The notes beneath the pieces are model-generated. The model did no database searches. It was not told where the DNA came from and was given only the letters and a program-made list of their open reading frames with translations. Both the position numbers and the translations under genes were made by a program. DNA of 64,000 nt, taken from positions 11,284,001 to 11,348,000 of the forward strand of contig NC_135254.1 in the NCBI RefSeq assembly GCF_964204865.1, given 5' to 3'. Origin of the DNA: Styela clava. Its lineage: Eukaryota. Of the stretch, positions 7,633-57,385 are shown in pieces. Every line of letters starts with the position of its first letter. The first letter of the stretch is position 1.

Positions 7633-10600
7633 ATGACTGCAGTCTTTGAAACTGCTGGTAAAAAGGAAGGTTTACAAATATGGAGAGTTGAAAACTTTAA
7701 GTTGGTGGAAAACTCCGAAGCAATCCATGGAAATTTTTATGTTGGAGATTCATACCTTCTGCTGAAGACGATCAAAAGTAAGTGATTGAGGATTTATGTA
7801 TGTAATATCAGACTTTGGAAATGGGCGTATTTTGATTGAATAATAACCGATTTCAATGGGTTGTATGATTTTATCATTTAACTCATTGTAAAGTAAAAAA
7901 GATTAGAAATGTGATCATTAAATCGCTAATTTGAAGTTGATCAAACTGTTTTGACATAAATAAAGAAGAGAACATTTAGTTTACAACATATCATTCGTGA
8001 ACAATGTCATCCTGTTGATTGATATTTATAAGAGTAGTTTGTAATTTATATTCCAGGCGTATCCCCGTGAACGTGATTCTGGCTATATTTCAAATGGTCA
8101 ACACAATATAAAAAGAATTATCACTTAGTAACGTTTTTAATGGAGTTCGCTCAATTCATTAAAATCTGAACCTGTCATAAACGCGTCGTGATCCGGGAGT
8201 TAACGACACGTAAAATCACGTATCACTCCAACAAGTAAACATAACCGTAAAATTTGATCTCACAAATCAAGTTTAATACGTGTCGTCCACATATCTATAT
8301 AGTAGTAGAGTTACTTTTTAGGTGACCTTTACTACTCGCTGAAAGAAGCGCAGTTCAACAACACGATCTTTTTCACAACAAAAACAATTTTCACTTTACT
8401 AGGCCACAGGCCATGATGTTTCTCGAAATCAAGAGCTGAAATTAATAGTAATGGAATTGCGCTATTGCAAAATTGTGTTTAATTTAGTAGCCACATTATA
8501 TTGTTAACATTGTGATAACGTTAAAATATGAAACAGAATACGATAGTAATTCCGATGAGGGACAATTTTGGCCACCCAGACATTCTATTAATAATTATAA
8601 TTTTCTCATACATTGTCATACGCTCGCCTAGCAAGCACTGACTAGCAAGCACAGGCGACAAAACACAGTCAATGAGAAACTTTATTACAACTAGTGTACG
8701 AGGCACGAACCCGGCGTGTCAATCCACATTTTCTCCGGAATTGATTGGTTAGACGAGGGGCGTGCAACCTTTTACGCAGGCAAATACTAGTAACTGGGTG
8801 AAGCCGCGGGCCAGACTTAGAAACTCTAACTACGAATGTCTCTAGATACAAAAAATTTGTAGTTTTTTCCGGCATTTCTCTGTACTTTCTCATTACCATG
8901 TGTACCGTGAAGAATTTCTTACTTGCGAAAAGGTTTCCGCAATTGCAACGAAATTAATTTGTTCCAAACCCCATCGTAAGTATAAAATGTTGTAAGTACA
9001 GATGCTCTTTACCTGAAAATGCATTAATCCGTTCCAAGCCCCAACAACGAACGAACCAATGGGATGGCAGATAGTTGATTGGCGTGTGGTAGGGCAGATA
9101 CCACGGACTTTAATTTTTATATTGCATACAACACCAGCCGTTGATTTAGAAAAACGCAAATGTAATTACGCGATCATCGTCATTCACAAACGAGTGAACC
9201 TGATTTCCAAATTCCCATCTGCCAATTAAGACCGAAAATCTTCTTTTATTTTGCGAGTCGCGGCTGATTAAAATTTGATTATAAATTAATACCGTCAACT
9301 TAAACTGAACGATATTGTCATCAACGACGCCGCCATAGATAGTAAATAATATTTAAGAGCTATTTTATACGCTCTAAATTGCAAACAATGAAATAAAAAG
9401 TTCGGTCACTATCGAAATGAAAGAATAACATCCGTGCTTCAAGCACTGAATTAAATAATCCCAAAATAAACATATATCACTACACGCATTTTTTGTTTCC
9501 GATTTTCGTCCTTTCGTATGTAGAAAATCTTATACGTTAGTCAAAGCAATATTTTTACGTTGAGAATTCTCGTAATTTGGCTTTTTGGTATCCAGAACCT
9601 TTCGTAAGTAGAGTTTCTACTAAAGCACAAAAAATTGTTTAATTTTATTATTGATCTTATGGCATTGTTCGGAGTCCTGACAGAAATGTTGAGGTAAAAC
9701 GCAAAAATTTCTAAAGAAAACCTGCTATTTAAATTTATTGTCACACCGACTTTAAACGATTTCAGTAATAAAAAAAACACGTTTTTATAACATTGTATAT
9801 TTTCCAAAAGGAACTTTTTAGCTAGTTTCGCTGATATGACAGTGGCACTCGGGTAGGGGAAAGTGGGGAAGGTTGGGACACTTTTTTTCTATTGCATATT
9901 TTGAGCCGTTAATTCTGCATATTCTCTTAAGTTTGCGGGACTAATGCATAGAGGGGTGAATGTAGTTTTTATTCAGCAACAAAGAAATTCCCTTGCGACA
10001 CACATCTTACTACCAAAATGCTTTGAAAAACGTCTGTCAAGTGTCCCACTGTACCCCACTGAGGTGTCCCACTGTACCCGACATCAGCAACAGGTTCTGC
10101 GGCATTCTGGGACTTCGATTTCATCTCTTCATGAAGTATTACAGAGAATGGGGAAGACACCTCGTTGTAACTCACCGAAGGCCGGATTGGAACATCGAGC
10201 CGCGGACAGGATTGCGGATATAGTATCAGTGTGATAGCTGATTTTCCACTGTGCCCCATGTCCCAACGTGCCCCACCTTCCCCCACTGGTATAGGCTTCG
10301 CAACGCGAGGAGATTGAAATTTCTCGCACGTTCCAGATTAATTAAACTTAAAGCTCGTTTCGCGGACACATCCTTCAAAATTGGAACTTCTCCACGGGTC
10401 GCACAATTTTTCTCCCCTGAGTTAGACGATAGAATACCGCATTCAAAAAGTCTGGTATTTTTATACCAACCGGCTGACTATTTTGAAGCAAAAAAAGAGT
10501 ATTTTGAATAGATTATTTTGCATAAATCTGTTCCGATAACTTATAATAAACTATTGTTTTTGTTGCAGCCAGAAATGGGAAACTGCGATGGGATCTGCAT

Positions 10601-13600
10601 TTCTGGTTAGGATCCGAATCAAGCCAGGATGAACGAGGAGCAGCAGCCATATTAACGTGTCAAATGGACGAATATATGGGAGGAGATCCAGTGCAATATA
10701 GACAACTACAAGGATATGAAAGTTCAGAGTTCATGGCGATGTTTAAGACTGGTGTAAAGTACATGGTTTGTAAAAATTTAGTAACATTTGTTACAGATTT
10801 GATGTTTGAACTATTGTGAAGTGGAGTCGAATATGCATTGACAGTCTAACTATAATACTTCAGTTGATGCTTTTCTTATCTTTATAGATAGTTATGTACG
10901 TTTCACCTCATTCATTTTTATGCTGTCGCATAATATCTGTGATCTTTATTTGATCGCATTGCCATAAAACATATCGAGGCCATGCTTTCTCTACAAAATA
11001 GAGAAATCAGTTTAAAATTTCAGCTTGAAATCAGTTAAGATTTATAGTAAGGAACTAATCGATATTTATAAAGTGAACATACTTCGCCGAAGACCTCGCT
11101 GCCGAAATGATTCTGTACAAACCATCTCACCTTGGTATGAAACAGTGATGTTTGAAGTGGCTGGAACCTTTTCAGATCATACTTTATTTATGTTCACAGA
11201 TAAATCAGATTAACTTGGATTGTTATGCCAATTTATACAGTTTGTAATTCCTTAAGATTTGACATGATGATACTGGCATATTTATGATTTCAGACCGTAT
11301 AAATTGCAGCAGTCAATTCACCTCTGGGTTACAGGAATTTTATATATAAAACTTAAAGCCCATACATATAAAAATTTGAAAAAAAAAAAAAAAATTTTAA
11401 AGTTATTTATAGAGCAGCGCGAGCGAGCTCCAGTACAGTATTTTTAGAGACAATATTCGAACTATCGCAATTACATATCTCGACTAAGTACAAAATAATT
11501 TTGGGATAATATATTTTATACGCATGGAATTAAGATAATTACAGCATGCCGCTCACATGTCATCAATCAAGCTTTATCTCTAGCTGTTTATTTTTTTAAG
11601 ATTTAACGATTAATATAGTTACAATTTTTGTTCTTAGGGTATGTTTCCTACAAAATCTTCCGCGAGACAACAGAAATTGACGCACTAATATATTTTGTAT
11701 TTAATATATATGTGCTTGGATATAGTCAAAATATAATATCACACATTGTCAGTTGATCAGAATGCAGAAGTACTGAAGGAAATTTTAAAAAAAACGTGCA
11801 CAACAATTGAAATTATCCGATTAACTTTTACCAATTGTTTAAAACAAAGCCAGTTGAACGAGAACCTAATCTTGTATTCACAAGTTAATGTAGTTTTGAG
11901 CTGATCAACGTGATGGGCTTAAAATGAAGACTAATCACCTATCTGCAATAACAACCATCTAATTCTAAGTAGACTATACGCTTTGACCATAAGTTAACAT
12001 ATAACACGATTTCGTTATAAAGAAGAGAAATTTAACAACTAATGATTTCATTTGTACATTATTGATAAACAATGAATATTTTACGATTAACATACTTCAC
12101 CTCTTTGGTTCGCTAACACCTCTGTTCTGGAAAGTTTTAAAAACAGTAGCCAGTAAGTAAAATATTAATAGGTTTCAGGAAAGGGATATACTCACTTCAC
12201 CATAAACCGCTACAGGCCTGTCAAACAGTTTAAAACCAATCAGTAATCAGTAGTTTATTTTTTCACCTTATCGATGATACACACTTATTAAATACACATA
12301 CCGAATGTAAAAAAGGCACTTTTGGGTGAAAAAGCTGAGCACATGTTTTGATAAAATCTATACAACTGACTTGAATAACATGGGAACATTGTATTCGTCT
12401 CATTTCAGCAAGGTGGAGTTGAATCTGGATTCAAGCAGGTAAAAACAAACGTCAGTGAATCGAAACGACTTCTTCATGTCAAAGGTAGAAGATCAGTTCG
12501 CGCGACAGAAGTTCCGATGAAATGGTCCAGCTTCAATCACGGAGACAGTTTTATTCTCGATTATGAAAATGTGAGTTATATTACATTACTTGTTTCAAAT
12601 ATCGTATTTTACGGACCACGAGGCGCACCGTATTTAAGACTAAATGAATTGCTTAGATTGTTTTTCATCCATACATAAGGCGCATCGGAATATAAGACGC
12701 GACGAATTTAAAGTGATTTATTTACTGGTTTAGAGTGTGGGCAATAAATCATGATGCACTGCCTGACCCATACATTAGCCGCACCGGCTTATAAGGAACA
12801 GGGTTAATTTCTGAGAGAGAAAAATGATCTAAAATGCGTCTTATGATCTGCAAAATACGGTAAATCAAAAAGTCTGTATGACGCGGACCACGTTGAAGTA
12901 ACTTCAAATATATTTCTGTGTGCTGTTTAAACGGTCTGGAACTGTAAATTTTATGCAATACTGTAACCTTCGGTTGCATATTTCTGTATGGCTATAGAAT
13001 CATTAAAATTAGTGCACGGAGTTATTCCGTTAGTATACAAATGCAGAAAATAGTTAATCTGGTATTTATATTATCATTTTTGCAAAAACTGACATTAAAT
13101 ATTATCCTTCGTAGAATTTGTTAAAAAATGTGGTCTGTCATATCAATCTCTCTTCCTAATAATTTGTAGCAATTCGTGAGACTTAGAATCTCAGAAGTAT
13201 TCTAATGATTTTGCTCCGGACTTAATTATAAGAGTCCTATGGTAGTAATGACATACCACATACCAATGCCATAAGAATAGCATAGGTAATTGTGTGTGTT
13301 CATTGATATAGTGATTTGATAACATTGTATATGTCATTCCTAAGTGATTCAAGAGTCTTGCTGCACACTAACACAAATATATTTCTGTAACGTTTCGTCT
13401 GACCAAGGTCAGACTTCTTCAGACATACATAATTCAACTACAACACGAAAAGCAGTTACATGCATATTTAAACAATCATAGTAGAATTATAGGAGTCACG
13501 CATGTTAAATAATCAATAAAATCTGTGAATTTCTTGATTAAATAACAGCGGGTGGCCGAAATAAGTGTCATTGATGAGATCTCTCTCTTTGTTTTATATT

Positions 13601-16600
13601 TAGCAATTGAAGTCCAAATTACACAATGGTGTTTTATTTCTCAGTATTGTATAATGCAGACCAAAAAAGTTGTCTGTGTGTCAAATGTAATATAGTGATA
13701 TTTTGTCTGGTATTAGCATATCTGGCCCTGCATGATCCAATTCTGAGAAAAAAATATATTAGGTACAAGAATTGATTTAAACAATGAATGAAAATATCTA
13801 AACTTCCTTAATATTCATCCCTTGTGGTTCGTGTGTCCCGAAAAGATGAATGTAATGGGATTCCTTGTTCTTTCGATAAATGTGGTCATGAAATAGTTTT
13901 TCAATGCCAATGACACTCAAATCTTTAAGCAAATGTCCCGGTTGACTGAAATGGGCGCCAACAACCAGATCTTTGTTTTGGGTTTTTATACTTCTAATAT
14001 GCTCAGTTATTCGGTATGACCACATTTATCGAAAGAACAAGGAATCCCATTACATTCATCTTTTCGGGACACACGAACCACAAGGGATGAATATTAAGGA
14101 AGTTTAGATATTTTCATTCATTGTTTAAATCAATTCTTGTACCTAATATATTTTTTTCTCAGAATTGGATCATGCAGGGCCAGATATGCTAATACCAGAC
14201 AAAATATCACTATATTACATTTGACACACAGACAACTTTTTTGGTCTGCATTATACAATACTGAGAAATAAAACACCATTGTGTAATTTGGACTTCAATT
14301 GCTAAATATAAAACAAAGAGAGAGATCTCATCAATGACACTTATTTCGGCCACCCGCTGTTATTTAATCAAGAAATTCACAGATTTTATTGATTATTTAA
14401 CATGCGTGACTCCTATAATTCTACTATGATTGTTTAAATATGCATGTAACTGCTTTTCGTGTTGTAGTTGAATTATGTATGTCTGAAGAAGTCTGACCTT
14501 GGTCAGACGAAACGTTACAGAAATATATTTGTGTTAGTGTGCAGCAAGACTCTTGAATCACTTAGGATTGTTATCTCTACTCTTGCTACAGCATCCTTGC
14601 AATATATGCATACGGATCCACCGGCACAAAAACATAGAAGAAGGATAAGTAGTTAGTTTCGCAGAAACCAAATAATTGTATATGTCAGTTGCGAAACAAA
14701 AGAAACCAAACAATCACTATAAGTTTGGTTGTTTTCACGACGACAAATGAAACTAATGTCATTTGAATTCTCATTTTAACCTGCTTTTCAGAATGTTTAT
14801 CAATGGAACGGCAAAGAATGCAACCATTTTGAGAAACTGAAAGCTAACAACGTAGCACGCGCAATAATCAGCTACGAAAAAGGTGGCAAAGGCAAACTTA
14901 TTAAAATAGAAGACGGAGAAAGGATACCCATAAATATGTTGCAGGTTGGTTTAAACTTTCGTAAATATAATCAGAATTAGGAATTTAGTAAACAACATTG
15001 AAAATTTTCTTGAGAAAAGACAATTTTACATCCTTCTAGTATGAGTTGTGTCTCCATATACAGGCTCTTCTGGGTACACCAGGCGACATCCTACCTTCAG
15101 TACCCGATGACGTTGTACTATCAACGGACACATCGCCAGCTGTTCTTTATCATGTGTGTGCCGATACAGGAAAACTCATAATTACCGAAATAGGATATGC
15201 ACCACTTGAACAAGACCAGCTGGACAGTGGCGATTCTTACATTTTGGACAATGGATCTCAAGGAAAAATTTTTGTTTGGAAAGGTGAATGACTTACCAAT
15301 TCGGAACTAGTGAAAAATTCCGGTTTTAATGAAGCCATACACCGATGTCACCACAAGCGGTTAACAATGTGCGCTTACCATTGTTTTAATTTCAATTTTT
15401 GACATGTCTGCCTATGAATATATGATTGGGTTCCATCTTTGCACCCACGTACATTTGCATCCAGAACAATCGCACCTACATACTTTTGCACCCACTGACA
15501 TTTGCACCCTTGAACAATTGCACGCGCAGATTTTAGCACCCACATACAGGTTGCATCAATGGACATTTGTACTCACGCACATTTGCACCAACGTAAATTT
15601 GCACCCACAGACATTTGCACTCATAAACATTTACACACACATGTATTTTGCGGTAATACGTAATTTTGAGTACGAATTCGGTACGATTCACCAAAAAAAA
15701 GTTAATATTTGCATTCTAATATTATGGAGTCACTAATAAGCAACTCATGACATCAAATCATGTGACAGGGTATTTGCGTCACCAAGCACACACTTTGTAT
15801 ACGATGAACCTCCAAAAACGTCAGTTGTTAAAACGCTGTATAGTGTTCATCTTCTAATCGGTTTCTTGTCCAGTTCCCTGATCTGGATTCGAGTCGCAAA
15901 CACCTTAAAACAAATAGCTCTAGTAACGATGACTCCAACAGAATTCGCGTATTGGAATTGTCCATTGTCATATTCTAACCTGTAAACATTAGTCAACGAT
16001 AAAAAAATGAAACAACTTCGAACCGAAAATTTCGAAAAATCGATTTAAAACGACATGAAAGTTGCATTTACTTATATGTTAATATTAGGCAAAGGAGCAA
16101 GTAGAGAGGAGCGACTCGGAGCTTTGGAATATGCCAACAAATTCATCGAGAGAAAAAATTATAGCGAAAGTACTGGAATTGAAATAATGGCGGAAGGAGC
16201 TGAAACAATTTTGTTCAAGCAATTCTTTTCGTCTTGGAGAAATAAAGATGAAACTGTCGGTTTCGGAAAAATTTACGCTGCCAACAAGATTGCAAAAATA
16301 GAACAGGTACTGTGATGTTTTCGTATTAAATCATTTTTCACTTCGTTTGCATTCTGAAGTGTCAGAGACATCGGCTTCAAAAATAATGTAAAATTGAAAA
16401 TTGATAAATTTCGGCATAAAAGATGTACACTGTAGTATACATAAAAATTTAATATAGCACACAACGAATTCACCCAAAAGATCTATTGCCAAATAATTAG
16501 TTCAAAAAAAGAAATATATATATATCGTTCGTAATGGAATATCTGATTTTATATTCAAACCTCTGACGAAACTTTCGTGGAAAAATAAAATGATAAATTG

Positions 16601-19600
16601 GATGAATATGAAGAAAGATTCCAGATTACCGTTAGGCTATAAACATAAATATGCCATTTTCTAATATTTCTAACGTTGTTTTTTATGAATCAGTTACGTA
16701 TTTCAGTTCAAATGTGAACAAAAGTAATCGGGTTTATATGTACGTGTTGCATAAGACTGTGTGTACATTGGAATGTGACAGTTATCAATGCTAGTCTGTC
16801 AACACGCTGTTTTAGTTAGAATGGGAGTAAAACTATTAAGTTGTTCTATAACACGTATTTTACAGATCAAGTTTGACATGAAATCATTGAATGACTCAAA
16901 GTTAGCGGCAAAGTATAGAATGGTTGATGACGGCTCCGGAAAGGTAAAACCAATATTACATGCCCAAATCAAATTACATTTTTTTCTAGTATTAGGGAGT
17001 TTTCCAATCATTGTTGCCTTAATAGTAAAAACATGATTTGCCTTCTTTTCATATTATAAGGTCCACTATATATGTATATGTTCATCAAATCTTCTGAATA
17101 AAAAACCGATTTTAGAAGGCTCCCCAAATCGCGTGATATTGCATTCCTAATTTTCACTCTCAATGTTTGATAAGCCCGTGCTGTTTTTGTTAATCCGAGG
17201 GGTGAGGGTGCGCTGGTGTACAGATTCCAAATATGCATGGTAAAATTGTGTACCAATTTGTTACGACAAAATCTTGCAACCTTATCTACATATTTTCGGT
17301 GAGATTATTCAATATGATATCCGAACAAAACAATTCATTTTGGGCTACTTTTACAGCTTGAAATCTGGCGTGTCGAAGATGGTTTTCAATCTGTAGATCC
17401 GTCAATGTATGGAGTATTCTATGACAACCATTGCTACATAATGTTGTACACATACAAACCGTCTAGAAGAGAAGAATATATTATTTATTTCTGGCAGGGA
17501 AGGCAGGCGCCCATCCAGAAGGTGTGTTAAAATATATATGTGTAGTACGATAAGTGTTCAGTATAGTTGTTGGGCGAATGAACTACACAGTCATTTAGTT
17601 ATTAAAGTATATTTCAACTATCGTCTGTTATCCTCGTTTCTGAACATACAATATACTCATAGTATGTTGGAAGAGAAAGGTAGCAAGAAACACGAGGGCT
17701 CCGAGACTTAGACAAGCAAGCGCTGAGTGTTCTAGAATCTAGATTGTAACGCTTGGTTGAGCGCAATAATGACGTATTAACTGTACTTTCCTTATTGCCA
17801 CTTCGATCTACCGGTAATTGTAGAGTCTGAAGACAAAATAATAAATGAAATCTATTTATCTGAATCCCGGAAACTTGCGTAGTGAAATGGATAAATTAAC
17901 AGTCGAATTTTTATTTTGCATTCATCAGGTCACAGTATCGTCATTTCTAGCTGTTGAGCTTTGTCGAAAATATCGCGATAGACCCGTCCAGGTTCGAGTG
18001 ATTCAAGGTAAAGAACCTCCGCATCTACTAAGCCTATTTGGAGGAAAGCCTATGATCATTGTATCGGGAAACGAAAAGATATCAAACTTTATATCAGGAA
18101 TTGACGACGTGGCATTGTTACAGGTACAACAATTCTTGAAACCACTTATAAAATAATATCCTGCTGTGAATTTAAATAAATTGTGTCTTTAGTTCTTGGA
18201 CACAAATGTTATATGTATCAAAATCGTTTTTCGTTTAAGATTTTATAAATTTTAACTACTGCAGCGAGCTATAATTTTCCAGAGTAAAATCTTTTCTTAT
18301 CCCCGTGAGAAAAATATTTTAATTCAATCGGAATATTGAAATTAATTTTCTACTCCTATATTATCGTTTCCAAAAGTAAAATTGAATAAAAATAATAATA
18401 TATTCAAATCTAGTCCTCTGAAATGTTTTTTAGATATTTTGCACTGCAACTGGAGGGCGCGCTATCCAAGTATCAACTTCTGCTGGTTCTCTAAATTCAA
18501 ACGATGCGTTCGTATTGAAAACAAGATCTTCTTGCTATATTTGGGTTGGATTGGGTGCCTCTGATGATGAAATTGATGGAGCGAAATTTGTTGCAAGTAA
18601 GATTCGATTTAGGAAAGTAAATTAATTAAATAAAAATAAAGCAACGCTTAAGATCCAGATCCATGTTTCATATGAGTTTTTTTTTAATTGGGACTTCGAG
18701 CTATTTCTATCCGTTTTTAAAGAAAATAGTAGAAACTGTTTGTCTCTCTTCCTGACCATTCAGTTTTTTGGGCATTCTACTAGGTGTGCATTTCACATTC
18801 ATTATTGTGTGGCTTTATTGCGATTCAAATTTTTCTCGTGAAACAAAATACATATTTTTTGTTTCAATTCTAACATAAAACATTTATATGGATTGTTGAA
18901 ATATTAAACTCTTTTCAGATAAACTGTGCATTCATACACCAGTCGTTCGCAAAGAAGGCAAAGAAAGTCCCGGTTTTTGGTATTGGCTTGGTGGAAAACA
19001 AGAATACGCTAACCACCCAAGGCTTCATGAGGATCTAAATGAGAATCCACCAAGATTATTTGGAATATCCGATGCATCAGGTTAGTGCATAAACAGTTCA
19101 GTAATATTTATTTAAAAGCTTTTTTAAAAGCAATCGCGGTATTTAATGAAGTATAAAATTAGATTATTGGGTTAGAACGGTTCAAAATGTCATATTGGCT
19201 AATGGCTCTTGACCTACTTTGAATAAGGACATTTTGTTAAAGCACTTTATCATTAAAGTTTATATTTGAAAGGTCGACTGGTCGTTGATGAGGTTCCAGG
19301 TGATTTCACACAAGCTGACTTATGTGAAGATGACGTCATGATGTTGGATGTTTGGGATCAAATTTTTATTTGGATTGGAAATGGCGCAAATTCACAAGAA
19401 AGAAAAGAGGCTCCAAAGTAAGAAATAGTTGATATTTTTTAGTTGAAATTTAGTGCTATTCACGTTTAATCGCGTCAGTATATATCTTCTCCAAAGGCAT
19501 GCTAACAAACTGTCAACAGTTCAATTTCGAAAATGAAAATGTTGTAGATATGTTTGTAGCAAGCTATATATTGATCAAGATACCAACTAATAATATTCTC

Positions 19601-19816
19601 GGTACAGGGAACGTGGGAATTATATTTTGACAGTTTGTTTCAAATAATTTTTATTTCATTTTTTTTAGACTTGCGGAAGATTATATTAAATCCGATCCGA
19701 GAAAACGAGATGCAAGAACATCTATTATCACAATAACACAGGGAAATGAACCTTTGTCTTTCACTGGATTTCTCCCTACTTGGGACCCAAAATTCGTTTA
19801 CAGCAAAACTCTTTAG
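7633..19816 (+). CDS. GSN: Gelsolin-family protein A (six domains, about 716 aa, no villin headpiece; gelsolin/adseverin-like)
   Basis: 13 phase-compatible GT-AG exons: 7633-7777, 10569-10765, 12409-12570, 14792-14944, 15064-15283, 16089-16306, 16866-16943, 17357-17521, 17929-18123, 18434-18596, 18919-19080, 19273-19417, 19669-19816. Motifs: [67 protein letters not shown]. The spliced ORF is open to TAG. Confidence 0.92.
9847..10290. mobile_element. MITE with G-rich terminal inverted repeats (gelsolin A intron 1)
   Basis: Left GGGGAAAGTGGGGAAGGTTGGGACA versus right-end complement GGGGAAGGTGGGGCACGTTGGGACA. Internal GTGTCCCACTGTACCC repeats. Confidence 0.6.
12602..12860. mobile_element. Tc1/mariner (pogo-like) MITE
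   Basis: TA-flanked imperfect TIRs CGTATTTTACGGACCACGAGGCGCA and TGCGTCTTATGATCTGCAAAATACGG. Confidence 0.6.
13380..13431 (-). ncRNA. Mirror copy of the minimal hammerhead ribozyme
   Basis: Reverse complement of 14474-14525 in the left palindrome arm. Confidence 0.75.
14474..14525 (+). ncRNA. Minimal type I hammerhead ribozyme of the Penelope-like element
   Basis: CTGAAGA core at 14483-14489, stem II GTCTGACC-TT-GGTCAGAC, GAAA at 14509-14512, palindromic ACGT in place of stem III, GUU cleavage triplet, short stem I TGT/ACA. Confidence 0.75.
15428..15640. repeat. Degenerate minisatellite of about 15-bp units (ACATTTGCACCCACG), related to the MITE at 1181
   Basis: Roughly 13 units. Begins GGTTCCAT like the 1181 element. 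Confidence 0.7.
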
Positions 19817-24360: not shown

Positions 24361-24599
24361 ATTCAGTATATTGGAAACTGATTTTCAACATTCCCGATAT
24401 AATCGTAATACAGAATGAAAAAAGCGATACCCAAATATATGGACACGAAAGATAAAACTAAGTAATACTAGTATACAATTTGTCACAGTACACTACCGCT
24501 ACCGCAATCCTCACGAATTACGCGAACGCAGGACCGCCACAAGGTGCGTAATTTTAGATATTGATGACGTCATAACACACAAAAGAACGAATCCCATAG

Positions 24600-25112
24600 C
24601 AGTGTTTTTCAACCTTTTTCATCGTGGTATACCTTTTACAATTTTTCAAGAATTTTGTATACCTTACAAATACCAATCTTTATTTAAGGATTAAATAAAC
24701 ATTCAATTTGAGCACATATTGTACTGCAATATCATCATGCAATCTAATAGGCTAATGTCCGCAAGTTATAAGTTTAACTGACGGTCTTAGCGTCAACGGG
24801 GATAATATTCAACGTAAAATAAACAAAGTGCATGACAGCCGGAATCACCAACCCACCACGTAACCGAAATATCTATATAATTTGTGATGTAACAATGTGC
24901 TCACGTCGGTTTTTGCATAAATGACATTTTATATTTCATGTGCGCCGCGTTTGCGTTGTTGTCTTCGCTTGAATATTTTATAATTTAATATATTAGAGTT
25001 TGGAGTCCCTGACTTAGGCTATACACCCTTCGTATGCGCTTTATCAGTTGTATACCCAACTTATGGTTCGGTATATACTTGGGTATACCGTATACCCGGT
25101 TGAAGAACACTG
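24600..25112. mobile_element. hAT (Charlie-type) MITE
   Basis: TIRs CAGTGTTTTTCAACC and GGTTGAAGAACACTG. CCATAG on both flanks. Absent from copy 2 (about 36272-36285). Confidence 0.8.
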
Positions 25113-25819
25113 CCATAGAGCCCACAGAAATTTTTGAAATAAATAAAAATAATAAACTTCTAGTGAAAAATACAATTGCAAATCAATTATTTCATTTTTT
25201 AAAAAGAAACGCGATTTTTTTATAACGATAAAACGAAGAATATCAACAAGAATAAGACCAAGGACAACAACATGATAACGAAACGATCCATAGGTACATT
25301 TCGTGTCCAATAATAAATATGTATTAAACATATTTTTGATATAATTGGACACTAGTTGGGTATATTTATACTTCACTCAATCCCATGCTCAATCAGTAAC
25401 CCGTGTGCAAACAAGTAAACAAGGTTGAGTCGAATTTTGTTTAGAATTGCGTCAACGCTTCATTACCAGTTCTTGTGATTGGGACCAACACGACGTGTCC
25501 TCATAAATATTTCTTGCCACCAGTGTTTGTAGTCTATTTCCAACTAAACTAAAGTAAATATTGGACAATTGCAAAATAACAATATATCATAAAAAATTTA
25601 TTTCTCATATAAATTGTTACATTAATTTGCACCAAATGTACGCTTGTCTATAAATCTTTAATAAAAATAATATATTATCTAATTTATTGAATAAAGTATA
25701 AAAGGTAGTTTTGTTCATAAGATTCAACAATAATTCTGCCTTCATTGATTTTCATCATGTACCACGGTATTGTGAGTTTGATGCAGAATTTCCTGTAAAT
25801 AAGTTCGTATTTGATATCT

Positions 25820-45532: not shown

Positions 45533-47549
45533 ACATAAATGGACAACATATAATAAAACAATTGATTAAACTCTCTTCATTCAGTCTTTAAAAATAGAAT
45601 AGTTAGTTGAAATGTTCTACTTTTTTCAGGTAATACTTTTCCTTTCTGCAATAGTTAATCCCTACCATATTACGGTTATGATACATCCACGTATAAATCA
45701 GACAATTTAAAATGCGTTTTTTATTGTACAAACTTTACAATTGATTCTTACAAGTGAAAAATTATCGAGATTGTTTTTCACAACAGCGAAAGAAATTTTT
45801 CAACCTTCAATAAGCAATAGATACGTGCGTTGTAATGCGTTCATGTTATATATCATTCTCAAGTCAGTGTTTTTTCACTTCTTCCTATTCATCGGTATGT
45901 CAGTGTGATACCAGAAATATCTGCATTTAAAATTTTCAACATATCATTTTCTGCTTGTTAATGTGTGTTTGGTATTTGTGATATATATAGGTTATGATGA
46001 TGGTAAGGTTAGGAATAACGATCAACATATCACCCCTTCTATTTTAATAGTCTGCTCGATGGACGTACATTTATCTCCCACATAACGTCCATTACTTCCA
46101 TAATGCACACTTTTATATGAACAACTTTTTCAGTAGGCCTATCAAATATGGCTATAATTGAATGTTCTTGGTAATACATAGAGAGATTAAACCTCATCCA
46201 GTTGATTGGTAAGTTGATAAATACTTCATGTGCTATTGTAACAGCATTTGAAAGTATGATATTTCCTTGAGTATACCTTAGTCATATTTATGTGATTTCA
46301 TGCCTTTTCCAGTTGTAATGTGCTATATTAAATTATAACATGTGTGGATTGGTTTGACTTGCTGATCACCAAATGAATTCGAAGTGAGAGTTCGGAATCT
46401 ACACCTGGCAAATTCAATAGTACCAAACACTAGAATTCCTCATATTGAGATATATTGATCAAAACAACTGCAAGCTGTGATAAAATTTTGAAATAATCAT
46501 CTATGTTACTGGTTACATAAGAATATAAAGATAGTAATTAATAGTGCACAATATTACAACAATAGTACGACTAATATACATCGAAAATCGTCGGATAAAA
46601 ATCAATTATAAAGAATCCTGTATAGGATTTCTAAAATACTATTTATTAATATATCCCATTTCCTAGTTTATGATCGAAAAGTGAATGTAATTCAGCGATT
46701 GTGTATTGGTGTAAGCTTTGACGTCGATTGTTCAGCGTAGTTACAATTTTAGCCAATGCCAAAAGAGGTTTGCAATAGCTCGCTAATATATGAACGAATT
46801 GGATATTTTGTTTGAGAATTTAATAGAGATTATACCATGGAAAACTATTTTAGATGATGCGACAACGTTCTTAAAAATAATTCACGCAGTAAGCAACTAT
46901 GATAAATAATTTGATTTCTTCGAATAAAATTACCATCAAAATGTAATAGTCCGTTCACGAAATTAAAACAAAACAAAAACTAAAGAAGATCATATTGATA
47001 TCATTATTCCATCCTCAATTGTATTAAATGGGTCGGGAGACTTAAATGTTTGTCAAAATACAAAATAATCAGAATAGCAATCCGAAGTAAATGATCAAAG
47101 TTACATAACCAAATGTTACCAATATTTTAAGCAATTTTCCACATTAAAAATAGAAAAATTGAAATTTTTTGTTTAAATTGGGAAGGAAACATCATATTAA
47201 CAGTAAATATATAAAAGTCATGGGAATTATTTAACACGTGAAGCAATAGTAACAAAATTAAAAACAATTTTCCGCAATCCTGCTGCATTACCCCAAATAT
47301 CAATCCTGATTTAATTGAGATTTTTACAAAATGATTGAGAATATAAAACCTCTAATTATATTTAGAAATACAAGGTAGTACTGAATAAATTACATAATAA
47401 AGCGTAAACTATTTAATTACGAACAGTTCTCAACTTCAACAATGAGAATGACTACGTAAACGAACGTCCCGGATAACAATAACAATAAAATTGTAAAATA
47501 TTTCAGTCTATAAACTCTGGCGAAATGCTAATATTGATTTTCTGTAAAA

Positions 47550-47697
47550 TTAATCTGTTTTTCCATATTTAAAAGTCGGATCCCACGAAGGGAGGAATCC
47601 GGTAAACAACAATGGTTCATTTCCTTGAGTAATAGTAACAATTGACATTCTGGGATCTCGTTTTCGCGAATCGTTTTTAATGTAGTCCACGGCCAAT
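47550..47697 (-). CDS. GSN: Alternative terminal exon 13b of gelsolin B (gives an isoform of about 720 aa)
   Basis: CTTTCAG acceptor, phase 2 like exon 13a. Encodes [48 protein letters not shown]. Same 148-nt length as, and clearly homologous to, the last exon of gene A. Confidence 0.75.
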
Positions 47698-48866
47698 CTG
47701 AAAGATCGAAAATAAGTTGCTTAGCGTGACAATTTAGGAAATTTATTCATACGACTACGTGTTCTACAGATGTAATATAAGTTTAGAATTATTTCCAATT
47801 CATTTACAAGCGATATTGAGTCGTAAATAAGTTCTTTGTATCGATTTCGTTCTTTGGCAAGAGTTAAAACTTGAAGGTTCATGGTTCTGTTCTTCAGAAG
47901 AAACCATTGTTGAATAGAATAATCCACGATGAATGTGTGAGATGGTTTAGTAGAATACGTCAGTTGAGAATAACTCTGCAATTATCACGATTTCAACAAC
48001 TATATTCTTTTTTATAAACAACACTAGCTGGATTAAAACTCATTGGACAAATGAATAAATACTGGCGGAAAAATAACTATTGTGCACTTCTTTGGAATGG
48101 TGCCCGGTACAGCGAAAGTAATCGAAAAGAGAAGGCAGTAAAACGTAAGTAATCGAGTCTATGCGTTCATTGGGCAAGAAAATTCAGATTCTATGGTAAA
48201 GGTATTATCGCTGTCGAAATATCGAGTCAAGTCATGTCGATTTCCATATTATCTATGTATATTATCTAATCTTCCTCTTTGCATGAGAGTTATTTCGCTG
48301 TAAATCCTATGAGAAGAAGTATCATGTTGACTGTATTTCAAGTCATTTAGTTGAGAAGAAAGTGACTGAATAACAATCAGATATAAATCAACCATTTCTA
48401 TGATATTGATCAGCAATAAACACAAAACATTATTCTCTTTCAACAAAACAACATCAAAAATCAATTACTCTGAATGATTCTATACAACACAATTAAAACT
48501 AGGTAATCAAGAAGTTCATGCAAATCCACAGATCATATAACATTAGCGATATGAAATCTGAGGGACACTAACCTACATACAAATTAAATTCATGGCATCA
48601 TCTAAACCTAATACTCAATACATATAAACTCCACAAAATAGTGATCAAGCTACCATATCCAGTAATACACATGAAGCAGTTAACATTGATAAAATCAGAA
48701 AATTGGTGAAAGCATAAATTCATAGAATTTATTCAAATTCAATAGGAATTTTCTAAATGTTGCAAGCTTGTGCAACGTTTCTAAATTACCTGAATTCAGA
48801 AACATTATAAGGCATGGAGCAAATTTTTTTTTTATTATGACGTTCATCTGAAGATACTCACCCTAA

Positions 48867-51800
48867 TTATTTATATAGAGCCGCATCCCAACCTTGAAAG
48901 AATCCCGTAAAAATTCCCGGCTCTGAAGCTTGTTTTACAGTCATCACTGGACAGTCAGGAGAGCGACCACGCGGATCGCATTTGATGTAGTCAACAGCAA
49001 GCCTATAATCATGAGTGCGTGACGATGTTGTTAAGTACAGGGGTGATATGAAATTCCAAAGTAACGAGCTGTGCTGAGTCTTAGTTAAAATGCCTTCAAA
49101 ACGATTATTCAAAGCGTGAAATGATAAAAAAAATAATAATAATATTAAGATGGTTCAAAATGAATCTTAAGCATTCGTAGGCACGCAAAGAAATAAACTT
49201 AAATCTTAACATTGCGTGCTATTTTCTACTGAGATCCAACTCAACGTTGCCCTTCAAGTTATTATATGAAGTCAAGGTCATATATTTTATGAAACAATGG
49301 TAATAATCTCAAAAAATATCTAACATCTTGTAAACGTGATATTGTGGTTAATTATTACTTGAGCTCTTTGTTAACGTCATAATATCGTGATTTAATGGCC
49401 AATGTAAAAATGGAAGCAACGGAGTGGAGTGAAAGTAAACATTTTAAAGTTGACATTGTATATTATTTTAAATGCAGCTGACAGGACGACATGCAATGCA
49501 ACAACAAAACAATTAATAGCAACACTGAACTAAAATTTTCACTACAAACCATTGACTTGTTTTATACAAACTGTGATGTCATACTTAGGTGCTTCTTTTC
49601 TCTCTTGTTCGTTCGCGCCTTTTCCAATCCAAATAAAAACTTGATCCCAAACGTCCAACATCATGACGTCATCCTCACATAAGTCAGCCTGTGTGAAATC
49701 CCCTGGAACTTCATCTACAATGACTCGTCCTGTTACATTAGCAAAAATTATTAAACTGGGTAGTATGACCACGATAGACACTGAAATATTCTAAAGAAAT
49801 TATCACGGTCAAACTTCACAAGAAGGTTGACTGAATGAAGTTCAAAAATACGACTGCAGTAAATTGACTGCACGAAGTCTATAGACCAGGGGCGGGACTA
49901 ACTGTTCTGCTGTCCGGGGCAAATTCCTGATGATGATGCTTCTTATACCTAACTATAAAAATAATTCGGGGGATAAACAAATTATAAATGTGTATAATGA
50001 GAATTATAGATTTTCATTATATATACATGAGAATGAATAAATCAAAGGTAGAGTAAGAGTGGAATTTTGTATTACTATTATATAAAATTTCAAATTATTA
50101 AACTAAGCAACAAACTCACACCCCTTCAACGTGCTGAATGTGGCGGCTGCCTCTATGACCCATCTCTAGGCACGCCGCTGGATACAACCAATTTATTGTT
50201 TATACAAATTAAAACTACGGTAGCAGCATTCCTGAGGCAAGACTGAAAATTGTGACAAGATGCAAACTTTCACTGTGAGTAAATGATTGGCACGGTAGAG
50301 ATTTGAATGGCTATGAATGGCATATTTGTCATAATTCTTTTCATTCCATTTACCCGTAGCGTTTGAGATTCCAAACAGCCTTGCTGGATTATCGGTTAAT
50401 TCTTCTTGCAGTCTAGGATGACTAGCATACTCCTGCTTTCCGCCGAGAATCTTCCAAAGGTTGGAATCTTCAGATCCTTCTTTTATTATCACAGGCGAAT
50501 TTGAACCACCAATTTTGTCTAAAAGCATAGAAAAGAATCGTTGTTTGTTTAAATCTGTTTTTGCACAATGTATATATATAAAGAGTTCGTTCACTACAAT
50601 TGTCAGAAATAGGTAACAGAAAAAGTACCTATGAAAAACAGTTATGAAGAAATACCAATAGATAATAATACTTAATAGATAGTATAATAATGATAGAATT
50701 TTATGAGGCGCTTCAAACTTCAAACAAAATGTGAAATCGATTGGTGCAATTTGGAAATATAGAAGAGAATAATTTTACAACAGCAACGTCAACAACGACA
50801 GTTTACCAAAACGATTTTGTTTGAATTTATTCACAATATGGACAACTACCTGAGACGTATTTTGCAGCAGCAATTTCGTCATCTGATGCTCCTCGTCCAA
50901 CCCATACATAACTGGCAGATTTAGTTTTCAGCACAAAAGCATCATTGGAATTGAGAGAACGAGCGGATGTAGCTACTTGAATGGCACGTCCTCCTGTAGC
51001 TGTACAGAACACCTGACAATAAGATAAATTTTTTTATCATCAGTGTTGGTTTATAATGCTATAAATAATGGCACAATGCATGGCTTGGACGTTGAACAAT
51101 ATCGAGATAGGAAATAGCGAAAATTATAGAGAGAGAAGTAAAAATTGAAAATAATAAAGAAATGTCTGTGTTCACCTGAACAAGGGCGGTTTCATCAATT
51201 CCGCTATCATTCTTCCCTTTGCTTCTTCCACCAGACACTATAATCATTGGTTTTCCTCCAAATAAACTAAGTAGATGGGGAGGTTCTTTACCCTGAACCA
51301 CGCGTACTTGAACAGGACGATCGTCGTATTTCTTGTCCATCTCTACGGCGTAGAAAGCAGATGCTGCGATCTGAACAATAAAAAAAGGGTCTGGAGGAAT
51401 GGTTTTTAATCTGAATTGAAGATTTCTCAAAACTGAGAGTTTTACAAAGTAATATTTGGGTCTTAGGAGGTTTGGTGACTCTATGCATGACCGATGAGCT
51501 AAAAGTAACGTTGGGATATTGAGTAATTTGAGCCGTTGCCTCCTCAGTCAACAACGGGGCCACGCTGACCGTGAACATGACATTTAGGCGGGAATTGACC
51601 AACGAGTCAACCATTATATTTGCAGTTATATTGTTGCCGCCGTGCCTCCTTCATCCATGACTTTGAAAAGAGAAGAAAAGAAAAAGATTTTCTGAAAATT
51701 ATAGAGAGAGAAGTAAAAAATTGAAAAAAATAATGAAATGTCTGTGTTCACCTGAACAAGTGCGGTTTCATCAATTCCGCTATCATTCTTTCCTTTGCTG

Positions 51801-54800
51801 AAATATACTACTTAAGCTTTAAAAAGGGGGGTTAAAGCTATTTAGTCTAATCAATAGGCGTGGTTATAAAAAGTAGAATGTAAAAGAACCACTTAATAAA
51901 GCACAAACCTCATCCTGTGTTGCATGTGATCCCTGCCAGAAGTAGATGATATATTCTTCTTTTCTCCCAACTTTATACGTGTATAACATGACGTAACAAT
52001 CGCCCGAGAAGAAAATTCCATATTTGGACTTGTCAACTGGCTTCAAAGAATCTTCCACACGCCAGATTTCGAGCTATTGTGAAATAGTTTTATCATAAAT
52101 AAATATCAGACGACAACTGAATAGTGAATAATGAGCGGAATAAATTGATTGATTCCAAGTGAATAACAACTATATGATCATGGGTTCTGCTTTTATTTTA
52201 TACTGTATGTTTAAGATTATATTTGGGGACAATCCGGGTATTACGACGAGCATGGGGGGCTATTTAGGTTTTTTCTTATTATAAATCGGGATTAGAAGAT
52301 TGGTTTTATAGCATTTTTGTTGTATTAAAAACGATGTATTATAGAATACAATATTGATTATACACGTACATTTTTATTGGGTTGATAAGTCGCCAGAAAA
52401 ATAGATATTATTTTCAATATAGCCAAACATCAAATACGCGATTAGACGAACTGGGTATATTTTATGTAATATAAAATTGAAGCAATTTTGTTTCATTTTT
52501 ATATCTCACCTTTCCAGTTCCGTCATCGACCATTCTGTACTTTGCCGCCAGTTTGGAGTTGCTCAGAGATTTCATGTCAAATTTGATCTGTAAAAAGTTG
52601 AAAATGGTATTATGATTTCTGATATCGAAATGGATAACAACTTGAGATCATATGCATGTAATATACATAGGGATTCATGTATATCGAAGAAGTCACCTTA
52701 GGGGCACTGAGCTTTAGTACTTGATTAAAAAATATTAGACAAAATGGAGCAAATTTGCACGTTATTTATAATTCTTTTTTTTTAATAACCTGCTGGATCT
52801 TGGCAATCTTGTTTTCGCTGTATTTCTCCCCAAATCCGATGGTGTCGCCTTTATTTCTCCATGATTTGAAGAATTGCTTGAACATGATGCTTTCAGATCC
52901 TTCTCCCATCATCTCAATGTTGGTGTAGTCTTTATAGTTTTTATCTTTGATAAAATCAGTAGCGTTCTTAAGTGCACCGCTACGTTCATCCTTGCTTGCC
53001 CCCTTGCCTAAAGAAAAAACAATAAGAGCAATGCTCAAATATATAGGACCAACCGTCACACATCGCTACGGGTAGGGTAAGTCACGAAAGCACTAAGTTA
53101 ACTGAAAAGCAATACGAGAAGAAAGTGTTCTCCTTTAAATTGAAAAACAGCAAAATTTTGGTGTCCATTGAAAAAAGTGAAAGTGATAGCCGTCAAAGGA
53201 CCCTTTTCTCTTTAGGTACCGAAGTTTAGAAATCTACTGGTTTATTAATTACAGAGAAAATCAACCCCCTAAACATATAACCCAATAAATGTATATATTG
53301 TCCCACCTTTCCACACAAAAATCTTTCCATGTGATCCGTTGTCAAGAATGTAGCAATCCCCACTCTTCAGCTCTCCTTGTTGGAACGGAGCTTTTCCAAC
53401 TTCTGTGACTTTAAGAGATCCCGTATCCGAACTTACGTGATACAAGGAAGCGGGAACTTTCTTCTCCTCAACCTTGATATCATCTGACGTCGCCGGTTGA
53501 ATATCGGATGGGGATCCTTCCAAAACCTAGAAAAGATGTCGTTTAGTATGCTATAAAGTACGACGAGTCGTTTTTTTAAATATTTATTTTTTCAAAATGC
53601 GCACGACAAGTAAGGATGTAAATCTACAATGCGTAAAATGTAAAAAATTATTTGACTTAAAAAAAAGGTAAATAAATTCCCCACATTTGCACATAAATTT
53701 TTTTAGTATAGCTTACAGTACAGATACCGGGAATTAGGAAATATATTGAGAAATTATACTGAATAATCTCGCAAAAGTCTATAGGCTAGATTGGGTCGTA
53801 ATGGTGTAGAGGTAAGATCGGGCCCAAAAGTTCCAGCCCGACCCGACCCAGGCCCGTGGGTATTGAACCCGACCCAGCCTAAGCCCGACCAATTAACTGG
53901 ATTTGCAGGCCATAGTCCGAAGCAAATCTGAAATTTCATATTTCATTTAGGAGTTCTTTGAATTGTCATTTATTTTATAACAAGTATTTCTAAGTTTAGT
54001 ATCCACACATAGTTTTAGTATATATATTTTTTTAAACATATATTTATTTTAAAAAAAGTCAGCGATAGAGAAGCCTTGCCGACCCGACCCGAACATAATG
54101 ATTGCCATTTCAGGCCTGGGCTCCAGATCTTAGCACTATAACGTTGTCGCATTAGATGAGCACCATGTCCTCTCAAAAGATCTCCCATTTTTTATAAAAA
54201 ATGCAACTTAAAATGGAACAGCAGAAGTTTGGGTGAAACGTCGGGTCCCATTGGGCGATTGGTCTTGGTGAGAATTTCGGGTAGCTACAGTTTGTAGCTT
54301 TTGATTGAGTAGCCTATTCATTATAAATCATTAAATGAATATTCTACCTTCAGCATAATATCCGGTACTCTGTCTTCTGGCTCGACTTTCGTATGTTTTC
54401 CTTTTCCTCCCTTTTCGTCGCTAATTATGGCTCTGGCAACGTTGTCCGCTTTCAGTTTTTCAAACATATTGCATTCTTTTCCATTCCATTGGAAAACGTC
54501 CTGACGAAACAAAAACGTGAGGAATTTCAAAATATTTTGAAAATCAAAATTTTGGTTTAAAGTCATTTATACAACGTTCCTCCTTTTCTTTATATATTGT
54601 CTTGAATTTTCTCTTATTGATTATTTGATGAATGTTTAAAATATGAATAGGTTTTTAAAAATCATGTTGTGAGTTTCCTTTAGTCCCGGTTTGTACATAT
54701 GCATTTGATTGAACTCAAGTTCATCGTGTATAAAAGTGTTATTATAAAAGTGCATCAAATAAAAACTATTATATTTGGCTTCGAAGTATAAAATGGAATA

Positions 54801-57385
54801 CATTCTGACAGCGCAATACTAACATTTCCATAATCAAGAATAAAACTGTCTCCATGATTGAAGCTTGACCATTTCATCGGAACTTCTGTTGCTCGAACTG
54901 ATCTTCTACCTTTGACATGAAGAAGTCGTTTCGATTCACTGACGTTTGTTTTCACCTGCTTGAATCCAGATGCTACTCCCCCTTGCTAAAAATAAAGTTA
55001 TATTTCATTAAAAGCAATATTGCCACAGTACAGTACGTCTTATTTCGGATTATTTGTATTTGTTTTACCAGACTATGAAATAAACATGTATTTTTTGAGT
55101 AGCGTTTTCGAATCGAATTTCTTACTCAAAAAATCGATTGTGACGGCCATGGAACACTAAAACATTGTTTCTTGCGAATTATCCCTCATTAAAAGCTCAT
55201 TCATTATGTGCTAATCTTGAAATATCTCCTATGAATTATTTATACAAGAAAATTTGATTCATTGTAAGAATCGTGTAATATACATTGAAACATGATGGAT
55301 TAATGACGCAACAAATGAACAAATGTTCGGCTCAACTCGCAGTTTTTAATGTTGTTGAAATATTGTACGTCTGTATCATTTTGTCGTGACTCTTCAATAG
55401 ATAAAATGCATATTTAGGTAGCATTCACACGCCTTTTTCTGAACACTATTCTGACATGACGCTTTATTTGTCGGTTTAATCGCGTACGGTCGAATGTGTC
55501 ATTCGAATAACATGGCACATCATTGCGATTTCCGGCGCAACGGGCCGTTAGAGTTTACATATACTTTTGCTATTTAACATAACACGGTGTAAGAACATGA
55601 ATGTTTATTTTCATTGTTAGATTACCTCGATGACGTTCATCCAGAAACATTCTGATTCACAGCTTGCTGACTGTTTGCAAAAGCATCGACCCGGAAACGC
55701 GTAGTGTGAACCGACGTTACTTGTTATTTCAATCAAATATATTTTTCGACTATCAAGATTTTTGTTTCGAAAACAGTAATAATTTTAAGAGTAATCAATG
55801 CAAATTAACTAGGTTTTTGTTTTTGACTAATTACATGGTCTATTATCCGGCGCTCCCGTAGTATGTTATTTTATTTCTATTAAGATTATGACCTAACTAT
55901 AACCTGATACACATACTACGTTTCGGTGTCCGCCACCTCGGTTCACATACTACATGAGTACCCAATATCCTTATTTAGCAATTTCCGTATTGCGGAAGTA
56001 TGAAAATGTGACCCTTTTGGTAGGTTTTACCAGAACACTATCAGAAACGAGTTAATATTCAACAGTTCTGGTTCCGAGGGGAATTTTCTGCATTAAGGCG
56101 TAGCAAACATGAGCAAACCATCAGGCATAAAATATTATCGTCTTATACACGTTTGAACAAACATGGTTCTACGAATCATCGAACAGAGATAAATTGAACA
56201 AATATTTATCAAAGATAAAGCATATGTTAAAGTTTACACAGCAATAACAATATGAAACTGGTACTTTCACCTAATTTTAAAACCCGTAATTAATCTCCGG
56301 GAAATTCTTGTTCGCAGAGTACAAGGTTCACATGGATTCCGATAACGAATACGGAATATTTTATTGCAAGCAGAGGATTTCATATAGTTACTGCATTTTT
56401 ATCCATTTATTAGTGACTCAACCCAGATTTGGTATTTGATTATCTGTCAGAAATATAATATGAATCCATGTTCCTTCCCTAACTAAATCAAGTTTAACAA
56501 GTGATTTATAGCTATCATATTTCAAGTTCAATGTTTACCATAAAACAGACGAAAAATCGGAACAATGTACATGAATTGGCGACACGACGCTACTTCTCTT
56601 GTATAAAAAAGTTCAGTCAGCAAAACTCGTCTCAATGGTGGCTATGACAATACAGCTATGTGCATCTGCCATATGTCAAATATTTGAGTTTGCGTCCAGG
56701 ATGATGCTCCATCATTTTGCCTCATAATACGTTTAGTCTTTTGTGAGTGAGTTAATAAGAAAGGCAAATATGAAAATGAAAAGATGCTTTTATCAATCTA
56801 TTTTATCCAAATAACTTTATAGTAGACAAATAACTTGGATACTAAATCTCTTTTGTATGGGTATAATCGAATATTACCGAATACTTGACTCCGTTTTTGA
56901 AAAGTGCCATGAATTCACGACTTTCGTGTTCTTGTGTTTGTCTGTATTGAACAGGCTCTCCTCCTAAGTAGTCATCCATTTGGCAAGTTATTATCGCTGC
57001 TGCTCCACGTTCGTCTTGACTTGATTCCCTGCCCAGCCAGAAATGAAGATCCCATCGCATTTTTCCGCATTTAGCTGAAATAAAAATGGATTTTTTTATC
57101 GAAGAGAATGCCAAAACGCTTTAATTCTATAACGGCAATGTGTGCTAGTCTTACTATGTTCAACGTGTATATAATTGAAGTTAAATTATAATTCAATAAA
57201 ACAAGATACAAGAATATATATCCTTGCAAACCTTCAATGGTCTTCAGAACAATGTACGAGTCTCCAACATGGAAATTTCCCAGTAATGCTTGGGCGTTCG
57301 CCACTAAATTCAATTTTTCTATTCGCCATGCCTGTACGCCTTCTTTCTTGCCAGCAGTTTCAAATATTGCGGTCAGATCAGCCAT
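48867..57385 (-). CDS. GSN: Gelsolin-family protein B (six domains, about 716 aa with exon 13a; all canonical Ca2+ ligands kept; no headpiece)
   Basis: Exons 57385-57232, 57074-56878, 54985-54824, 54500-54348, 53526-53307, 53007-52790, 52587-52510, 52073-51909, 51370-51176, 51012-50850, 50518-50354, 49729-49585, 49002-48867. Intron positions and phases match gene A. The spliced ORF is open. Confidence 0.93.
49887..50180. mobile_element. Degenerate hAT-like MITE in gelsolin B intron 11
   Basis: CAGGGGCGGGACTA...CCGGGGCAA left end and TAGGCACGCCGCTG right end. TSD not preserved. Confidence 0.5.
51696..51797 (-). repeat. Local duplicate of the gelsolin B exon 9 3' end and donor, placed in intron 8
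   Basis: Matches about 51120-51223. Confidence 0.85.
53807..54138. mobile_element. hAT-type MITE in gelsolin B intron 4
   Basis: TIRs TAGAGGTAAGATC and GATCTTAGCACTA. CCCGA subterminal repeats. TSD TAATGGTG/TAACGTTG (6 of 8 match). Confidence 0.65.

Follow-up and report, generated by a model that had tools for sequence, protein, structure and literature searches.

The 64,000-nucleotide stretch of the Styela clava genome analyzed here (RefSeq assembly GCF_964204865.1, contig NC_135254.1, positions 11,284,001 to 11,348,000; hereafter the window, within a genome of 377 Mb) contains two convergent gelsolin genes, gelsolin A on the forward strand and gelsolin B on the reverse strand, which have a 13-exon layout in common and encode proteins with 512 of 716 identical residues (71%). 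Gelsolin B carries two homologous exons at its 3' end, 13a and 13b, and makes two mRNAs, 12-13a-13b and 12-13b, with one 3' untranslated region (UTR). The protein with 13a is identical, letter for letter, to the S. clava gelsolin-like isoform X3 of RefSeq (716 aa) and the protein with 13b to isoform X1 (720 aa); the gene A translation is identical to a RefSeq scinderin-like/adseverin-like protein. RefSeq carries both B proteins under two accession sets, between which the tails show no amino-acid difference. Each B isoform shows six gelsolin repeats (PF00626), and the top PDB matches are gelsolins.

RNA evidence comes from six of nine organism-A runs, which we guessed to be RNA (X1, X2, X3, X6, X7, and X9; three studies), together with one DNA run (X11) and one run of organism B (X10). 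The runs have no RNA label on record, and RNA status was taken from GT..AG joints at exon borders, which the DNA run X11 lacks. Joint depths are depths of assembled contigs, a rough measure, and contigs show neither transcript ends, strand nor tissue. Divergence is given as non-synonymous divergence (dN), synonymous divergence (dS) or proportion of synonymous differences (pS). The features of gelsolin B are the following:

50354..57385, reverse strand: coding exons 1-11 of gelsolin B, from a chain of GT/AG exons, an open frame and identity to RefSeq; joints 10-11 and 11-12 are found in three of three RNA runs.
49585..49729, reverse strand: exon 12, present in both isoforms, encoding the first half of the sixth gelsolin repeat (G6) and the start of its long helix, with a phase-2 donor (exon chain, RNA joints, model).
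48862..49002, reverse strand: exon 13a, a 141-nt cassette of 44 codons and a TAA that ends at 48867 and is followed by 5 untranslated nt; an ancestral-type G6 end (RNA joints, 141-nt contigs).
48856..48861, reverse strand: the splice donor GTGAGT that makes 13a internal (sequence, use in RNA).
47550..47697, reverse strand: the exon 13b frame, 48 codons and a stop (joint 49585>47697 in runs X1, X3, X6, and X7; dN 0.19 and pS 0.74 against exon 13 of gene A).
46186..47549, reverse strand: the 3' UTR of the last exon, common to both mRNAs, with an approximate far end (a single high-depth contig of run X1, 46186-47697; shorter cover in runs X2 and X9; AATAAA at 46647).

Exons 13a and 13b are both open, start after an AG and are in phase 2, and their translations, confirmed by the RefSeq identity, are those of an earlier note made from the letters of the window alone. 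They form a homologous pair with the same phase that encodes the same protein region, each exon completing G6, and are identical at 21 of 44 positions. Exon 13 of gene A is identical to 13b at 36 of 48 positions and to 13a at 21 of 44, which agrees with the claim that gene A has a last exon of the 13b type only. A donor, AGG/GTGAGT, is found at 48862, 5 nt past the 13a stop, and AATAAA motifs are found at 48836 (31 nt past the stop) and at 48733.

The note had taken 13a as a last exon ending at 48867 and derived the isoforms from alternative last-exon choice. Exons of this kind, each with its own poly(A) site and mutually exclusive in mRNA, are the usual route to homologous C-termini according to parts of PMC8373072, and the two AATAAA motifs would suit them. 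The RNA contigs argue against this arrangement. Joints 12>13a (49585>49002) and 13a>13b (48862>47697) were each found in six of six runs from three studies, and joint 12>13b (49585>47697) in four of six (X1, X3, X6, and X7; two studies), so that both junctions proposed for checking, 49585>49002 and 49585>47697, are present and transcripts do splice from exon 12 to 13b. None of the three joints was found in the one DNA run, X11. Depths of 12>13a, 13a>13b, and 12>13b were 553, 490, and 239 in run X1, 356, 156, and 102 in X3, 122, 115, and 35 in X6, and 74, 93, and 35 in X7, respectively; those of the first two were 91 and 83 in X2 and 1466 and 1100 in X9, with no 12>13b among the joints listed for these two runs. 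Depth of 13a>13b is thus near that of 12>13a in X1, X2, X6, X7, and X9. Furthermore, 13a was assembled as its own contig of exactly 141 nt (48862-49002), stopping at the donor, in X3, X6, and X7, and just past this donor the rough contig depth falls to that of an intron (in X1, about 13 vs. about 500; in X7, 4 vs. 108). Both AATAAA sites sit in this intron-level depth, and contigs cannot show ends. Since the donor 5 nt past its stop is used, 13a is an internal exon, spliced on to 13b in all six runs; alternative last exons are refuted as the main route, and mutually exclusive use of the two exons is highly improbable. Two C-terminal isoforms are indeed transcribed, as the note proposed; the switch, however, is the inclusion or skipping of a stop cassette before one common last exon and 3' UTR.

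Skipping accounts for roughly a quarter to a third of the joints in X1, X6, and X7, contig depth being a poor measure. Because contigs drop variants, the lack of a skip joint among those listed for X2 and X9 was rejected as a sign of tissue specificity. In run X10 of organism B, a 192-nt 12-13a-13b contig with no differences and a depth of 2.5 is likely carry-over and was not counted. The two gelsolin contigs that belong to organism B itself resemble each other at 80-83% in exon 12; they contain a single joint from this exon, past which 9 codons of the next exon are visible, too few to type.

We propose with good confidence that inclusion or skipping of the stop cassette 13a is the switch, that one gene likely makes two gelsolins by it, and that 13b is conserved. 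When 13a is included, its stop would turn 13b into 3' UTR and a 716-aa protein would be made; when 13a is skipped, exon 12 would be joined to 13b and a 720-aa protein would be made. Both proteins would be identical over their first 672 residues and differ from residue 673 on, that is, in the last 44-48 residues. Under the 50-nt rule of nonsense-mediated decay, taken to apply in ascidians, the 13a-included mRNA is expected to escape decay, since 5 nt separate its stop from the last junction downstream. Read-through at this stop, in which the 141 nt of 13a would continue in frame into 13b, was rejected because a second half-domain would be appended; TAA being a tight stop codon also counts against it.

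An equivalent architecture is described for KRAS, where exon 4B is present in both mRNAs and is left untranslated by inclusion of 4A, whose 3' end carries a TAA (passages of PMC5945503), and KRAS 4A/4B is counted as a homologous 3' pair (in part of PMC8373072). As in KRAS, the last coding exons of gelsolin B are homologous, the upstream stop cassette is included or skipped, and the downstream exon is found in both mRNAs. Unlike KRAS, which swaps a membrane-targeting tail, gelsolin B is an unrelated protein that swaps half of the folded G6, and its case is known from sequence and RNA contigs. Among C-terminal substitutions derived from tandem exon duplication, sections of PMC8373072 give 77 human cases and attribute those at the C-terminus for the most part to the use of alternative poly(A) sites. 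Gelsolin B is like these in that two homologous exons give one protein alternative C-termini, each in some transcript, but uses a stop-carrying cassette instead of that main poly(A) route. The word gelsolin has no occurrence in the main text of PMC8373072.

Searches of titles and the starts of abstracts, outside which most subscription journals lie, returned no paper on this gene or on gelsolins that exchange homologous C-termini, and parts of bioRxiv 10.64898/2026.10.16.759396 contained nothing relevant to the proposed switch. RefSeq isoforms X1 and X3 already list both proteins; this is automatic annotation, and the protein records are silent on mechanism. To our knowledge, described gelsolin isoforms differ at the N-terminus. 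Older ascidian gelsolin papers (Halocynthia, 1990s-2001), absent from the literature search, could mention variants. The switch is real, expressed, conserved and of the known KRAS 4A/4B kind, with both proteins in RefSeq beforehand, and it provides a well-supported invertebrate case of this architecture. Its importance is moderate because the class is common, both proteins are in RefSeq and the functional difference is a proposal.

The corresponding features of gelsolin A are:

7633..19816, forward strand: gelsolin A, 13 coding exons, 716 aa, convergent with gelsolin B (exon chain, RefSeq identity).
19418..19668, forward strand: intron 12 of gene A, without 13a (shuffle test, tblastn).
19669..19816, forward strand: the sole last coding exon of gene A, 13b type (sequence; loose contig ends in runs X6 and X7 match the exon 12-13 joint).

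Intron 12 of gene A has 251 bp and no 13a, as had been claimed: 230 of 500 shuffles reach its local score, and tblastn found no match there. Comparison of A with B in intron 12 and in the 3' UTR showed no similarity above shuffles. Between 13b and exon 13 of gene A, synonymous sites are near saturation (pS 0.74) with a dN of 0.19, and the pooled exons 1, 2, 4, 5, 6, 8, 9, 10, and 11 of both genes (exons 3, 7, 12, and 13 left out) show a similar pS of 0.74 and dN of 0.25. Judged by these values, which resemble those of the pooled exons, 13b is under purifying selection as a protein. Exon 3 (12409-12570 vs. 54985-54824) and exon 12 (19273-19417 vs. 49729-49585) show low synonymous divergence between A and B (dS 0.26 and 0.81, respectively), an apparent sign of gene conversion between the inverted paralogues.

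These values bear on another origin allowed for in the note, by which 13b would be the neutral remnant of another, deleted gelsolin paralogue. Dead gelsolin tails do occur in the region, but 13b has an open frame, a dN of 0.19 at near-saturated synonymous sites, and splice joints to B exon 12 and to 13a. The joints refute this origin, whose probability we regard as negligible.

The note had further explained the two genes by subfunctionalisation, with one isoform fixed in A. Because B keeps and splices both exons and A has the 13b type only, the pattern is one of one-sided loss instead. In PGM1/PGM5, likewise, one paralogue keeps both homologous exons and the other only one (PMC9741552, section 12, and part of PMC4494069), an outcome that PMC9741552 sets apart from subfunctionalisation. 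As in PGM1/PGM5, B keeps both exons and A one; unlike there, the order of events in gelsolin A/B is inferred and does not come from outgroup genomes.

Ciona, Clavelina, and the gelsolins that group with them have a single ending, whose core is 13a-like and which mostly carries a tail of 18-21 residues (12 in P0014). A metagenome scan found four loci (four contigs) of one animal with a single clear exon 13 and the same exon border; a weak match 1.5 kb downstream (E 0.025) was rejected as a second exon and taken as chance. Two further gelsolin/villin-family genes are found in the S. clava genome (C16:272468 and C14:19291457), and their G6-like matches were rejected as exon 13 relatives, being other family members with one such exon each in the 3-kb stretches examined. 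Among seven full-length candidate proteins examined for the 13b-type tail, only S. clava A and B carried it.

A tree built from residues 1-672 (16 rows) places P0007 as the sister of A and B (93/87); its short tail is 13a-like, with 25 of 39 residues identical to 13a and 18 of 39 to 13b. In the exon tree (21 rows, 50 columns), the open reading frames (ORFs) P0140 and P0141 join 13b and exon 13 of gene A (90/88) and lie outside that pair (97/93); they are identical to the A exon at 26 of 47 and 27 of 47 positions, respectively, and have the same tail of 9-10 residues. P0140 (47 aa, ENA, longest contig 2104 nt) is a 13b-type ORF that starts exactly at the first codon of the exon, as would be expected if a related species' 12-13a-13b mRNA had been its source.

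The positions of P0007, P0140, and P0141, like the divergences, favor an exon duplication before the gene duplication. By the history that we hold to be probable, with fair confidence, exon 13 was at first single and long-tailed; it became duplicated in the Styela lineage, the tail helix disappeared from both copies, duplication of the gene followed, A lost 13a, and B kept both exons. The same splicing could also have arisen by gene duplication first, followed by divergence of the A exon 13 and capture of a copy by B, or by the origin of 13b in B and overwriting of the A exon by conversion, so that A lost nothing; we regard this as a real but lesser possibility. A and B are inverted neighbors with conversion in exons 3 and 12, gene A shows no 13a remnant, and KRAS 4A has been suggested to stem from an exon captured from a paralogue (in part of PMC9882654). 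However, 13b and the A exon 13 are as diverged as unconverted exons (pS 0.74 vs. 0.74; dN 0.19 vs. 0.25), and therefore any capture would have to date from about the time of the gene duplication. In addition, the dN between 13a and 13b is 0.50, twice the A-B value, and the identity of P0140 and P0141 to the A exon 13 (26/47 and 27/47) lies below the 71% of A and B.

Several points weigh against the stop-cassette switch or the duplication history as proposed. The isoform evidence consists of assembled contigs at the RNA level, not of raw or long reads, and shows no full-length mRNA; the skip joint 12>13b is not among the joints listed in X2 and X9; and the AATAAA motifs at 48836 and 48733 would allow 13a to act as a true last exon to a minor extent. 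No relative with both exons in one gene was seen, P0007, P0140, and P0141 being known here as proteins or ORFs. Sequence exchange between A and B in exons 3 and 12 blurs the history, the trees rest on 39-50 columns, and the event-ordering nodes (93/87 and 90/88) lie below the 95/80 mark.

AlphaFold models of both isoforms place the exon border (residue 673) within the long helix of G6 (664-679). The variable part comprises, in both models, the end of this helix, a strand at about 690-695 and a helix at 701-704, and a tail (latch) helix after G6 is absent from both. Past the last conserved Trp, 13a has 6 residues and 13b and A have 10; two vertebrate gelsolins have 19 there, and Ciona and Clavelina 18-21. 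With so few residues, neither isoform, as modeled, can form the latch helix, and the argument of the earlier note, which relied on G6 and the tail holding the calcium-free closed state, is not supported. A missing latch helix at the C-terminus in a protein of six gelsolin repeats is also known from adseverin/scinderin (in part of PMC4647846). Unlike in adseverin, the loss looks independent in S. clava, whose A and B group with tunicate-type gelsolins that mostly keep a tail of 18-21 residues.

The 13a ending has two cysteines and five basic residues, and the 13b ending no cysteines and seven basic residues. The calcium-binding helix glutamate, which we take to be E666 from alignment and a numbering offset, lies in the shared exon 12. 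The full-length models have low predicted template modeling scores (pTM 0.54 and 0.46) and TM scores of 0.30-0.44 to solved full-length gelsolin, and are uninformative on the closed state. Both endings are predicted to complete G6 alike and neither to add a latch helix. Because the same G6 elements are formed, no latch helix is present and the calcium glutamate is shared, the swap would tune the opening of the G6 long helix and its contacts with G4/G5, or surface partners, and calcium control would not be turned on or off by it. Its most likely effect would be to tune how stable G6 is and what surface it presents, given the differences in cysteines and basic residues.

Functional equivalence of the two endings, with skipping as tolerated variation and 13b kept only so that the skipped product folds, appears rather doubtful. 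It agrees with the same G6 elements in both models, with calcium ligand and latch that do not differ, and with contig data in which a tissue pattern could not be seen. However, 23 of 44 positions differ between the endings, both genes have retained the 13b type since they split, and such exon pairs are often tissue-specific in humans (according to parts of PMC9741552). Beyond tuning of G6, a bolder and unlikely proposal is that styelids dropped the calcium tail latch for a splice-switchable second half of G6, conserved in the family and regulated by stage or tissue, which would yield two actin-severing proteins with different calcium thresholds from one gene. If true, this would offer a natural pair for testing the contribution of G6 to activation once the latch is gone. 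The two proteins, identical over 672 residues and both latch-less, in any case provide a clean test of the G6 long helix and last strand in calcium sensitivity.

The window also contains a tandem duplication, missed in the earlier note, that holds a third copy of 13b, named 13b', and broken 3' ends of both gelsolin genes. Its two units, 19005-33712 and 33749-51696, are 15-18 kb long, and the following features lie around their junction:

31180..32692, reverse strand: 13b' and its UTR, in a dead duplicate of the B tail, with acceptor and frame intact and one amino-acid change (sequence; matches the tail of RefSeq isoform X2).
33052..33712, reverse strand: a dead, frameshifted copy of the B exon 9 region, joined to 13b' where about 3 kb, with exons 10-12 and 13a, have been lost (sequence).
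33749..34545, forward strand: a dead copy of A exons 11-13, with a stop and a frameshift in exon 12, at the start of the second unit (sequence).

At the junction, therefore, a broken A tail meets a broken B tail, in which exon 9 is frameshifted, exons 10-13a are lost and 13b' is intact at 32692-32545. Outside the B last exon, 635 of 8478 sites (7.5%) distinguish the copies, and inside it 21 of 1510 (1.4%); the most similar 1400 sites elsewhere in the unit show 61 differences. The last exon and UTR (31180-32692 vs. 46186-47697) are 98.6% identical compared with 92.5% elsewhere, and the edges of this tract lie near the exon edges. Recent gene conversion is the likeliest cause of the 98.6% tract, and a template derived from mRNA, at a guess, would explain its match to the exon.

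The 13b exon is present only twice in the genome. RefSeq isoform X2 joins exon 12 to 13b' over about 17 kb, and 13b' is a possible third ending. The diagnostic letters of 13b' at 47679 and 47690 are not among the differences listed in any run, where letters near contig ends go unlisted. Other animals show several 13b' alleles within the UTR of the B last exon, and the depth of X11 over the duplicate is at single-copy level (442 vs. 446). Since these alleles occur and the X11 depth is not doubled, the tandem duplicate may be polymorphic and possibly absent in the X11 animal.

Other elements were found in the window. At 43813-44900 (forward strand) lies a small multi-exon gene, present only in the second unit of the duplication, whose start resembles a signal peptide and which has a short collagen repeat (PF01391, E 4e-4, below the cut-off). 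A 486-codon open frame with DUF4371 (PF14291) at 22437-23894 (reverse strand) is presumably a hAT-type transposon. Within intron 8 of gene B, 106 bp repeat the end of exon 9 together with its donor at 95% identity (51119-51223 and 51694-51799). Intron 3 of gene A shows an inverted repeat of about 500 bp (13400-13900 and 14048-14540), spotted by eye, which is probably a foldback element; a mirrored chance match at 13578/14327 falls within it.

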